Both the position numbers and the translations under genes were made by a program. Below the pieces are notes generated by a model. It was not told the DNA's origin and searched no databases. It worked only from the letters and a program-made list of their open reading frames with translations. This document shows, piece after piece, positions 16,071-16,146 of a stretch of DNA of 58,017 bases. The DNA comes from a virus: IMG/VR virus record IMGVR_UViG_3300037089_000557. One strand, written 5' to 3'. Numbering within the stretch: the first letter of the stretch is position 1; each line of letters begins with the position of its first letter.

Positions 16071-16146
16071 GCGTCGGTAGCTCAGAGACCAGAGCGGACG
16101 GCCCTAAACCGTCTTGTCGTGGGTTTAAATCCCACCCGACGCACCA
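16071..16146 (+). tRNA. Amber suppressor tRNA (anticodon CUA), CCA encoded
   Basis: Exact 76 nt cloverleaf: acceptor GCGTCGG/CCGACGC, D stem GCTC/GAGC, anticodon stem GACGG/CCGTC with loop CCCTAAA (C33, no G18G19), T arm GTGGG-TTTAAAT-CCCAC, discriminator A, CCA. Confidence 0.75.

Follow-up and report, generated by a model that had tools for sequence, protein, structure and literature searches.

Several groups of bacteriophages with recoded stop codons, including crAss-like, Lak, 'Agate', 'Jade' and other phages, carry a suppressor transfer RNA (tRNA) for which a role as a temporal switch has been proposed (Borges et al., 10.1101/2021.08.26.457843; PMC9523058). Amber suppressors have also been described in jumbo phages: two CUA tRNA genes were reported in Xanthomonas phage XacN1, whose authors sought targets for these suppressors and found none (PMC5852040), and the CUA suppressor of Ralstonia phage RsoM2USA was reported without an identified target (PMC8504454). 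Here we describe an amber-suppressor tRNA gene located directly downstream of a gene encoding a PTH2-type peptidyl-tRNA hydrolase with an in-frame TAG at its third codon, in a 58,017-nt stretch of viral DNA from IMG/VR record IMGVR_UViG_3300037089_000557 (hereafter the window; all coordinates are window positions unless a locus is named). The comparative analysis presented below indicates that translation of this PTH2 probably requires the co-transcribed suppressor, the UAG at PTH2 codon 3 being the best-supported target.

As in recoded phages, a phage suppressor tRNA would here enable a standard-code host's ribosomes to decode an in-frame stop in phage genes. Recoded phages have stops in tens to hundreds of late, structural and lysis genes, a coding density that collapses under code 11, depletion of TAG and low GC content, whereas the window presents one gene (with a partner in relatives), one stop at codon 2–7, normal coding density and a tRNA physically tied to its target. 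An earlier sequence-only reading of the window, made without database searches, had likened it to Lak and crAss-like phages; the resemblance holds for the mechanism and not for membership, as the region fails the coding-density test for recoding. In Streptomyces, the tRNA-Leu(UAA) encoded by bldA is likewise a dedicated tRNA gating a few genes, such as adpA, via a rare codon, TTA (PMC10732093). The bldA system, however, involves a sense codon and acts in trans on a dispersed cellular regulon, whereas the window system is viral and involves a stop codon, a tRNA that would compete with a release factor, and adjacency of tRNA and target.

The bar minigenes of phage lambda are free-standing open reading frames (ORFs) of 2–3 codons, with a Shine-Dalgarno (SD) sequence and a stop codon, that are toxic through peptidyl-tRNA drop-off, and their toxicity depends on Pth activity. 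Like these minigenes, the window locus contains a short SD-led frame that ends in a stop and is tied to a peptidyl-tRNA hydrolase; unlike them, its mini-frame is continuous with the coding sequence of the hydrolase itself, and a matching suppressor co-occurs. The presence of PTH2 in jumbo phages was noted by Iyer et al. (PMC7824862), with no link to suppressors. Recoding surveys do not mention PTH2, a full-text literature search for Pth2, phage and UAG together returned nothing, and the PTH2-suppressor module appears undescribed within the searched literature. Suppressor-tRNA-dependent readthrough was known in phages before; its putative reduction to one linked gene within a genome of standard code appears to be new.

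A PTH2 gene with an early in-frame TAG

The PTH2 gene spans positions 15712–16053 (+ strand), starting with ATG ACG TAG ATA and ending with TGA (16051–16053), and comprises 113 codons if the TAG is decoded. This amber codon (15718–15720, +) is codon 3 and is followed by ATA (Ile), with A as the +4 base, so that the frame translates as M-T-*-I-S-E-G-D-K-L-Y-L-I-T-R-S-D-L. An SD-like GAAGG (15703–15707, +) is located 4 nt before the ATG at 15712 and 13 nt before the post-TAG codon. No ATG, GTG or TTG is found within 48 codons after the TAG, and the ATG at 15712 is the sole SD-positioned start of the gene.

The translated frame matches Pfam family PF01981 with 35 bits (cut-off 23, E=1.8e-8) over profile positions 2–104 of 115, the match beginning 6 residues past the TAG, and the PTH2 family profile matches the solved Pth2 structures 2zv3 (7e-9), 1rzw and 1q7s. 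The phage protein hence shares the fold family of archaeal and eukaryotic Pth2 as a divergent family, and it misses the equivalog cut-offs (30 bits vs 82 for TIGR00283, 27 vs 126 for NF003314); on these scores, the window PTH2 is a divergent phage branch of predicted hydrolases. The conserved R..D(L/I), Q..Q..H and EPD...T motifs are present in the phage PTH2, the invariant residues of the family are kept and the gene has no other lesion. We know of no stop-codon gating in cellular Pth2 genes.

The PTH2 start overlaps the stop of a 122-residue ORF of unassigned function (15347–15715, +; no Pfam match), whose TGA forms an ATGA with the PTH2 ATG, an arrangement that suggests translational coupling; the ATGACGTAG junction between the two genes is found again in the closest relative, L001. 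Downstream, a 17-nt spacer (16054–16070, +) separates PTH2 from the suppressor tRNA gene (16071–16146, +), which starts 351 nt from the in-frame TAG, and no terminator was found between PTH2 and the tRNA. The sequence-only reading had the same strand and the distance to the TAG right and gave the spacer as 18 bp. Because the next ORF (16151–16390, +; 79 residues, hydrophobic) starts 4 nt past the tRNA CCA, the tRNA is embedded in a polycistronic unit and excision is needed.

Co-occurrence of the early stop and the suppressor

Megablast of the locus against deposited phages returned no match. IMG/VR was searched by PTH2, providing a first set of five loci (contigs of 21–392 kb, four of them 145–392 kb) and then 80 loci, and the resulting 85 loci (L numbers below), with flanks of up to 10 kb, were grouped into 68 clusters at 90% identity. 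We define an amber-gated PTH2/suppressor module as an SD-led start, 0–6 sense codons, a stop and a conserved PTH2 N-terminus, with a matching suppressor on the same strand within ~2 kb and, as a further element, an adjacent or fused HD-like partner gene. The window locus has an SD-placed start, an early in-frame stop, a PTH2 N-terminus with no intervening canonical start and a same-strand suppressor within that distance.

All five of the first relatives share an ATG followed by one or two codons, a TAG and the conserved I-K/S-x-G-D-K-L-Y, and a CUA tRNA lies close to each. PTH2 orthologs as distant as ~25–40% identity keep the early TAG, which is present in 43 of the 68 clusters, 35 of which combine it with a CUA tRNA and 8 of which do not; a CUA tRNA without early TAG is found in 4 clusters and neither element in 21, an association (Fisher p=1.4e-7) whose significance is overstated, as the clusters are phylogenetically non-independent. 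The linked CUA tRNA follows PTH2 on the same strand in 38 of 39 clusters, at a median distance of 641 nt and a maximum of 2.1 kb. Linkage is not a side-effect of PTH2 lying in tRNA arrays, since the suppressors are the sole tRNAs of the ~20-kb locus in 10 clusters. A scan of all loci for an ATG, at most 6 codons, a stop and a long ORF yielded one large, divergent TAG cluster, which is PTH2 (73 members, down to 25% identity), and the same scan with TAA or TGA produced nothing comparable to it.

Several features indicate that the stop is decoded. Stop codon and predicted anticodon covary: in L062 the early stop is TAA (GAGGA-5 nt-ATG GCT TAA AAC), and the sole tRNA of the locus, abutting the gene, has a UUA anticodon. 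Four lineages (L011/12, LR756501, L079 and L117), all with a linked suppressor, have a TAG inside the PTH2 domain, aligned with E/Q/D in L011/12, D/E in LR756501 and P/A/I in L079; in L117 it falls at the same alignment position as in LR756501, with the tRNA 4 nt past the gene. Among the 29 contexts with an SD-like motif, the median distance to the upstream ATG is 6 nt, compared with 13–22 nt to the post-TAG codon, and the codon after the TAG is one that cannot initiate (AAT, AAC, GGC, ACA, AGC or GTT) in at least 12 of 50 contexts. Ungated homologs start with M-A-T-I-K-M-G-D-K-L-Y, which makes the post-TAG Ile/Val a conserved internal residue; the position aligned with the TAG is variable (T/Q/K/H/A/P). 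A purine (A or G) occupies +4 in 49 of the 50 distinct contexts, a preference confounded by the conserved Ile/Val codon. Initiation at the UAG itself, read by the CUA tRNA, was ruled out by the SD spacing, which fits the upstream ATG.

In 23 loci, PTH2 is adjoined by an HD-type protein (PHROG 14850, weak HDIG match; no Pfam match). Where it is a gene of its own, it starts with M-S-(Y)-L-*-N, M-L-*, M-N-T-* or M-K-S-* (at least 13 lineages, RsoM2USA among them), and in Tenacibaculum phage pT24, L055 and XacN1 it forms a fusion with PTH2, with one early TAG ahead of both; no homolog was detected in the window by tblastn. Since the same gate would control the HD-type partner in many relatives, the unit under the gate is probably a tRNA recycling or repair function.

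The survey also uncovered loci of different organization. A PTH2 clade without early TAG (L020, L026, L029, L047, L052, L053 and others) has a long in-frame Arg/Lys-rich extension ahead of PTH2, starting with M-R-[AT]-K-Q-Q. The only tRNAs in its 20-kb loci (L020, L026 and others) are one or two aberrant tRNA-Glu(UUC)-like genes, 0.3–1.9 kb downstream, with 6- or 8-nt anticodon loops according to ARAGORN; the notion that such 'UUCA-loop' tRNAs beside ungated PTH2 act as opal suppressors was not upheld, as they look like aberrant tRNA-Glu(UUC). Tandem early-TAG ORFs are present in L054 (1936 and 2714), L057 (1715 and 2462) and L058 (4201), the first ORF joining the N-terminal 20 residues of PTH2 to an endonuclease-like body, which suggests that a homing-endonuclease insertion duplicated the gated leader.

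Structure and identity of the suppressor tRNA

ARAGORN predicts 19 tRNAs across the window, including the 76-nt call at 16071–16146 (+) with anticodon cta starting at position 34 (16104–16106). Rfam RF00005 matches 16071–16143 in full length (model positions 1–71) with 59.4 bits (gathering score 29, E=2.3e-10), and RNAfold returns a cloverleaf of −33.6 kcal/mol. The Infernal alignment and the ARAGORN drawing agree on an anticodon stem GACGG/CCGUC and a 7-nt loop CCCUAAA, with C33 at 16103 and both A37 and A38 present. Efficient suppressors typically combine A37 and A38 with U33, which C33 replaces here. The variable loop has 5 nt, the discriminator is A73 and the CCA is encoded (16144–16146). 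In the D loop (AGAGACCA), the Rfam alignment assigns G to position 18 and A to position 19 (16088), and the T loop is UUUAAAU, with U56 at 16126. Among 50 distinct linked suppressors, U56 occurs in the window and L060 only, and both carry A19; this A19-U56 combination, which recurs independently in L060, is a compensated version of the tertiary G19-C56 elbow pair. Across 19 related suppressors, compensatory double changes occur at 16 of 19 helix pairs, and the CUA is invariant. Given the ARAGORN and Rfam calls and this covariation, the predicted tRNA is real and under structural selection.

Most of what the sequence-only reading had stated about this tRNA was therefore borne out on direct inspection, ARAGORN and Rfam: the clean 76-nt cloverleaf with encoded CCA and CUA at 34–36, the C33 and the T56 in a TTTAAAT loop. 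Its description of non-canonical core nucleotides was correct for C33, which recurs in other suppressors, and mistaken regarding a D loop lacking G18-G19, as G18 is kept and only position 19 has changed, to an A matched by U56. Its suggestion that such nucleotides could tune decoding or evade host editing has partial support. A shifted loop with a different anticodon, which it had named as a possible refutation, was assigned by neither ARAGORN nor Infernal, and the CUA stands.

The closest matches of the window tRNA are other PTH2-linked CUA tRNAs, at 74–79% identity, and no canonical phage tRNA is as close; in a nearest-neighbour isotype comparison against 480 phage tRNAs, other suppressors rank first, followed by Glu-like tRNAs at ~70–73%. 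The label tRNA-Pyl in the ARAGORN output is the program's name for any CUA anticodon. The pylT architecture has a 3-nt variable loop, a 6-bp anticodon stem, a short D loop and a non-canonical T loop, which the window tRNA does not fit, as its anticodon stem has 5 bp, its variable loop 5 nt and its D loop 8 nt (no search for pylS or pylBCD was made). The exact D-arm and T-loop pattern had no match in IMG/VR, nor did a 28-nt anticodon/variable-arm pattern in metagenomes, and a search with a 17-nt arm pattern gave 26 matches, 25 of them chance non-tRNA sequences. C33 was seen in 3 of ~51 distinct suppressors (window, L048 and L117), the L117 tRNA sharing the identical 17-nt arm.

As a set, the 50 linked CUA tRNAs are heterogeneous. 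Their anticodon loop is CUCUAAA in 28 and UUCUAAA in 8, U33 is present in 48, a 31–39 mismatch in 21, and the discriminator is A in 25, G in 15, U in 8 and C in 2. In the closest relative, L011 in this comparison, the suppressor occupies the same genomic position as that of the window and has a 21-nt variable arm. Such heterogeneity fits a codon located where the inserted residue would not matter.

Genetic code of the window

Greedy ORF sets gave a coding density of 0.866 for code 11, against 0.871 if TAG is taken as a sense codon. The window (42% GC) has ~24 of 97 ORFs ending in TAG, and the C-termini of these TAG-ended genes are conserved in L001; the genes at 18343–18840 and 18841–19197 are parted in that relative by an inserted 170-nt spacer. 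Treating TAG as sense brought no gain in density to Salmonella phage Arash (100 kb) or to LR756500 (sampled over 100 kb), which uses the standard code. Neither the rise in density nor the depletion of TAG as a terminator that marks code-15/TAG-recoded phages was observed in the window, and the region uses the standard code, with TAG as a working terminator. The statement in the sequence-only reading that most genes still terminate at TAG was loose in its numbers and right about the function of the codon, and the density results in the window, Arash and LR756500 support its suggestion of programmed rather than genome-wide readthrough.

That reading had also proposed a survey of in-frame TAGs, and among all window genes PTH2 is the only one with a supported instance. 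The remaining early-TAG candidates, including those at 4774 and 18832, either mark the junction between the end of one gene and the next gene or have an ATG one codon further on. At 4774–5478 (+), ATG GTG CTA TAG AAC ATG precedes a 229-residue ORF with HD-superfamily-like motifs and no Pfam match; it could be a second gated gene, but the ATG lies one codon past the TAG and comparative support was not found. A six-frame TAG-to-X alignment of the window with its relatives was swamped by off-frame DNA conservation.

Proposed mechanism and alternative explanations

The conservation of the TAG, its co-occurrence with CUA tRNAs, the covariation of stop and anticodon and the in-domain TAGs, seen against a standard-code background, support the view of the locus as an operon-like unit of a TAG-gated hydrolase and its own suppressor, as the sequence-only reading had suggested. 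From this anatomy we infer readthrough itself, its timing logic and its physiological purpose as follows. Ribosomes would initiate at the SD-positioned AUG (15712), overlapping the stop of the preceding ORF, read ACG and meet UAG. Without suppressor, termination or release of dipeptidyl-tRNA would follow and the enzyme would not be made; with mature, charged tRNA(CUA), readthrough would yield full-length PTH2. Because PTH2 and the tRNA would share one transcript, 17 nt apart and with no terminator between them, the arrangement could operate as a feed-forward AND gate or delay, in which PTH2 appears only after the phage tRNA has been transcribed, excised, CCA-tailed, aminoacylated and delivered. 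With the stop at codon 2–7, attempts at a closed gate would cost almost nothing, and the inserted residue would fall in a variable N-terminal tail where any amino acid might be tolerated. Possible reasons for gating PTH2 and the HD-type protein are the recycling of peptidyl-tRNA when suppression and heavy use of phage tRNAs perturb termination, and the repair of tRNA ends.

Several observations weigh against this interpretation, in addition to the non-independence of the clusters and the confounded +4 base. Eight early-TAG clusters lack a CUA suppressor in the fetched flanks, one of which (L018) has a UUA tRNA; in the other clusters a suppressor may be elsewhere. Conversely, suppressors lie beside ungated PTH2 in the 4 clusters with a CUA tRNA and no early TAG, and UUA tRNAs do so in LR745208 and Lak phages, so that the link between PTH2 and suppressors is wider than gating and not fully explained by it. 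In the cluster C mycobacteriophages Catera and Myrna, an SD sequence precedes the post-TAG GTG by 7 nt, which may allow the gate to be bypassed. Substitution of U33 in suppressor tRNAs reduces suppression without abolishing it, and C33 may make the window tRNA a weak decoder. All the evidence is computational and comparative, and for this phage it comes from the 58-kb window.

The early TAG might instead close a start-stop leader, AUG-(0–2 codons)-UAG, with PTH2 translated by reinitiation or by non-canonical initiation at the adjacent AUU, AUA or GUG and the suppressor being incidental or serving another purpose. The post-TAG codon is ATT, ATA, ATC, GTG or CTG in ~33 of 50 contexts, the SD-preceded GTG of Catera and Myrna is the annotated start in GenBank, an ATG occurs a few codons past the TAG in XacN1 and L004, and a connection between minigenes and Pth is established biology. 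Such a leader, however, leaves unexplained the co-occurrence of CUA tRNAs, the TAA-UUA covariation, the in-domain TAG of four lineages and the post-TAG codons that do not initiate, and the Ile/Val following the TAG is an internal residue conserved in ungated homologs; we therefore deem this explanation unlikely.

Genome-wide reassignment of TAG (code 15-like) in late genes beyond the window, with the tRNA as a general decoder, would agree with suppressor tRNAs being typical of recoded phages (10.1101/2021.08.26.457843), with the window being 58 kb of a genome of probably 200–400 kb and with the density of the L005 locus, which goes from 0.71 to 0.79 when TAG is read as sense. Against it stand the nearly constant density of the window and its TAG-ended ORFs with C-termini conserved in L001, the lack of gain in Arash and LR756500, the normal annotation of cultured carriers under code 11 and the recurrence of the gating TAG at one and the same N-terminal site even in very distant phages, a pattern not expected of random recoding, making reassignment very unlikely. 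It is scarcely credible that the tRNA, with its C33, A19 and U56, and the TAG-interrupted PTH2 are both decaying pseudogenes: C33 and U56 do depart from near-universal tRNA nucleotides, but A19-U56 is compensated and recurs in L060, C33 recurs in L117 (with an identical arm) and L048, the helices are all intact and covary across relatives, PTH2 keeps its invariant residues without other lesion, and the position of the TAG is conserved over dozens of lineages.

Beyond the window, suppressor-dependent translation of PTH2 suggests a broader proposal, for which we consider the case evenly balanced: that the orphan suppressors of standard-code jumbo phages do not decode a reassigned code and are instead dedicated regulatory RNAs gating a tRNA-recycling/repair module (PTH2 with or without the HD phosphohydrolase) via a stop at codons 2–7, a tRNA-sensing translational switch that might be an evolutionary seed of full recoding. 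In such a module, programmed stop readthrough would be pared down to one codon, one gene and a single linked tRNA within an otherwise standard-code genome, an intermediate of the sort required to account for the onset of full recoding, and peptidyl-tRNA hydrolysis would be functionally tied to suppression.

Cultured phages

The orphan CUA suppressors of XacN1, RsoM2USA, Cronobacter phage GAP32, Acinetobacter phage ME3 and pT24 belong to the same PTH2-linked set. Earlier jumbo-phage studies tested readthrough past gene ends, whereas we propose an early in-frame TAG, which hides or truncates the gene in annotation, as a concrete, testable target for suppressors whose targets were reported as unknown (XacN1, RsoM2USA). 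In pT24, PTH2 starts with ATG AAA TAG ATA, an annotated tRNA-Sup is located 2.5 kb upstream and the coding sequence (CDS) is N-terminally truncated. The CDS is also truncated in GAP32 (ATG GCA CAA TAG AAT), with an annotated Sup-tRNA 2.8 kb downstream, and starts past the TAG in ME3 (ATG ACT TAG ATT), with a CTA tRNA 430 bp upstream. PTH2 is unannotated in RsoM2USA (AAAGGAG-7-ATG TTG TAG ATT; no suppressor within 4 kb) and in Serratia phage BF (ATG ACG CAC TAG AAT; no suppressor within 3 kb). XacN1 (ORF364; AGAGGA-8-ATG AAG TAG ACC; no suppressor within 3 kb) has its start annotated at a later ATG. Catera (ATG TAG GTG) has a CUA tRNA labelled Arg 287 nt downstream and its start annotated at the GTG, and Myrna (GTG TAG GTG) has one labelled Ser 130 nt downstream and its start annotated at the second GTG. 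In Klebsiella phage RaK2, PTH2 has no TAG and no CUA tRNA was found in its flank.

In Arash, PTH2 starts with ATG CTG TAG AAC and is annotated as two truncated fragments, with a CUA tRNA, labelled Phe, 1 kb downstream; it is the only coding-strand gene in 100 kb with the early-stop start architecture. PTH2 is probably missing or truncated too in the Yersinia (fHe-Yen9) and Erwinia (pEa_SNUABM) relatives, where nothing is annotated under the match. Annotation has thus overlooked or shortened a conserved gene in BF, GAP32, ME3, Arash, pT24 and RsoM2USA and probably in these Yersinia and Erwinia relatives. As the module is found in phages of Salmonella, Acinetobacter, Cronobacter and Serratia, it can be tested directly with ordinary genetics and mass spectrometry.

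Arash (OQ632216, 87636–89475; L105) also encodes a family-A DNA polymerase split at motif B (...AKSVTF / GLLYG...) and annotated as three CDSs ('polymerase nu', hypothetical and 'polymerase theta'). The TAG in this gene was considered as a second target and rejected, as it lies in the intervening sequence that splits motif B.

Additional features of the locus

The leader TTACAGCTTACAAT directly before the tRNA is shared by the window (16057–16070) and L001 (6337–6350), despite their different tRNAs (type I and long variable arm, respectively), and may be a processing signal. A TTGAAA-17-TACAAT ending at 16070 was considered as a tRNA promoter and found implausible, its −10 element abutting tRNA position +1. 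In L005, a repeated promoter-like motif, AAAAAACTTGA(T/C)NAA...TAGTATCTTTGT, is found before the suppressor-PTH2 unit (5798–5840) and before the next unit (6868–6900). Downstream of PTH2 in L003 (6340–6470; same as L015), a tRNA-like remnant consisting of GATCCGG...CCGGATC and a T arm with an insert of ~50 nt, for which ARAGORN makes no call, is located where the window has its suppressor.

UUA (ochre-type) tRNAs are found near PTH2 genes free of an early stop in LR745208 (L097 4405–4481), 30 bp downstream, and in Lak-B7/Lak-A1 (L095/L096, ~3230–3430), ~600 bp upstream. Transfer-messenger RNA genes are present a few kb from the PTH2-suppressor unit in L003 (2346–2709) and in the Catera locus L010 (from 10274), a proximity that hints at a clustered ribosome-rescue/tRNA-recycling toolkit. 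The window also encodes a CCA-adding tRNA nucleotidyltransferase (47680–49308, +); its suppressor has its own CCA, and many related suppressors have no encoded CCA. Insertions of ~10 nt in the variable region are seen in a tRNA-Gly(UCC) of 83 nt (31479–31561) and a tRNA-Met of 82 nt (2596–2677), two isotypes that normally have short variable loops.

Elsewhere in the window, a 623-residue ORF (23822–25693, +) shows an intein-splicing-like Pfam match that falls short of the cut-off, along with a weak PHROG match to Fe-S oxidoreductases. A 913-residue protein (10555–13296, +), conserved in L001, combines a Major Vault Protein shoulder (PF11978, 1.9e-27) with vault repeat domains, which is unusual in a phage.

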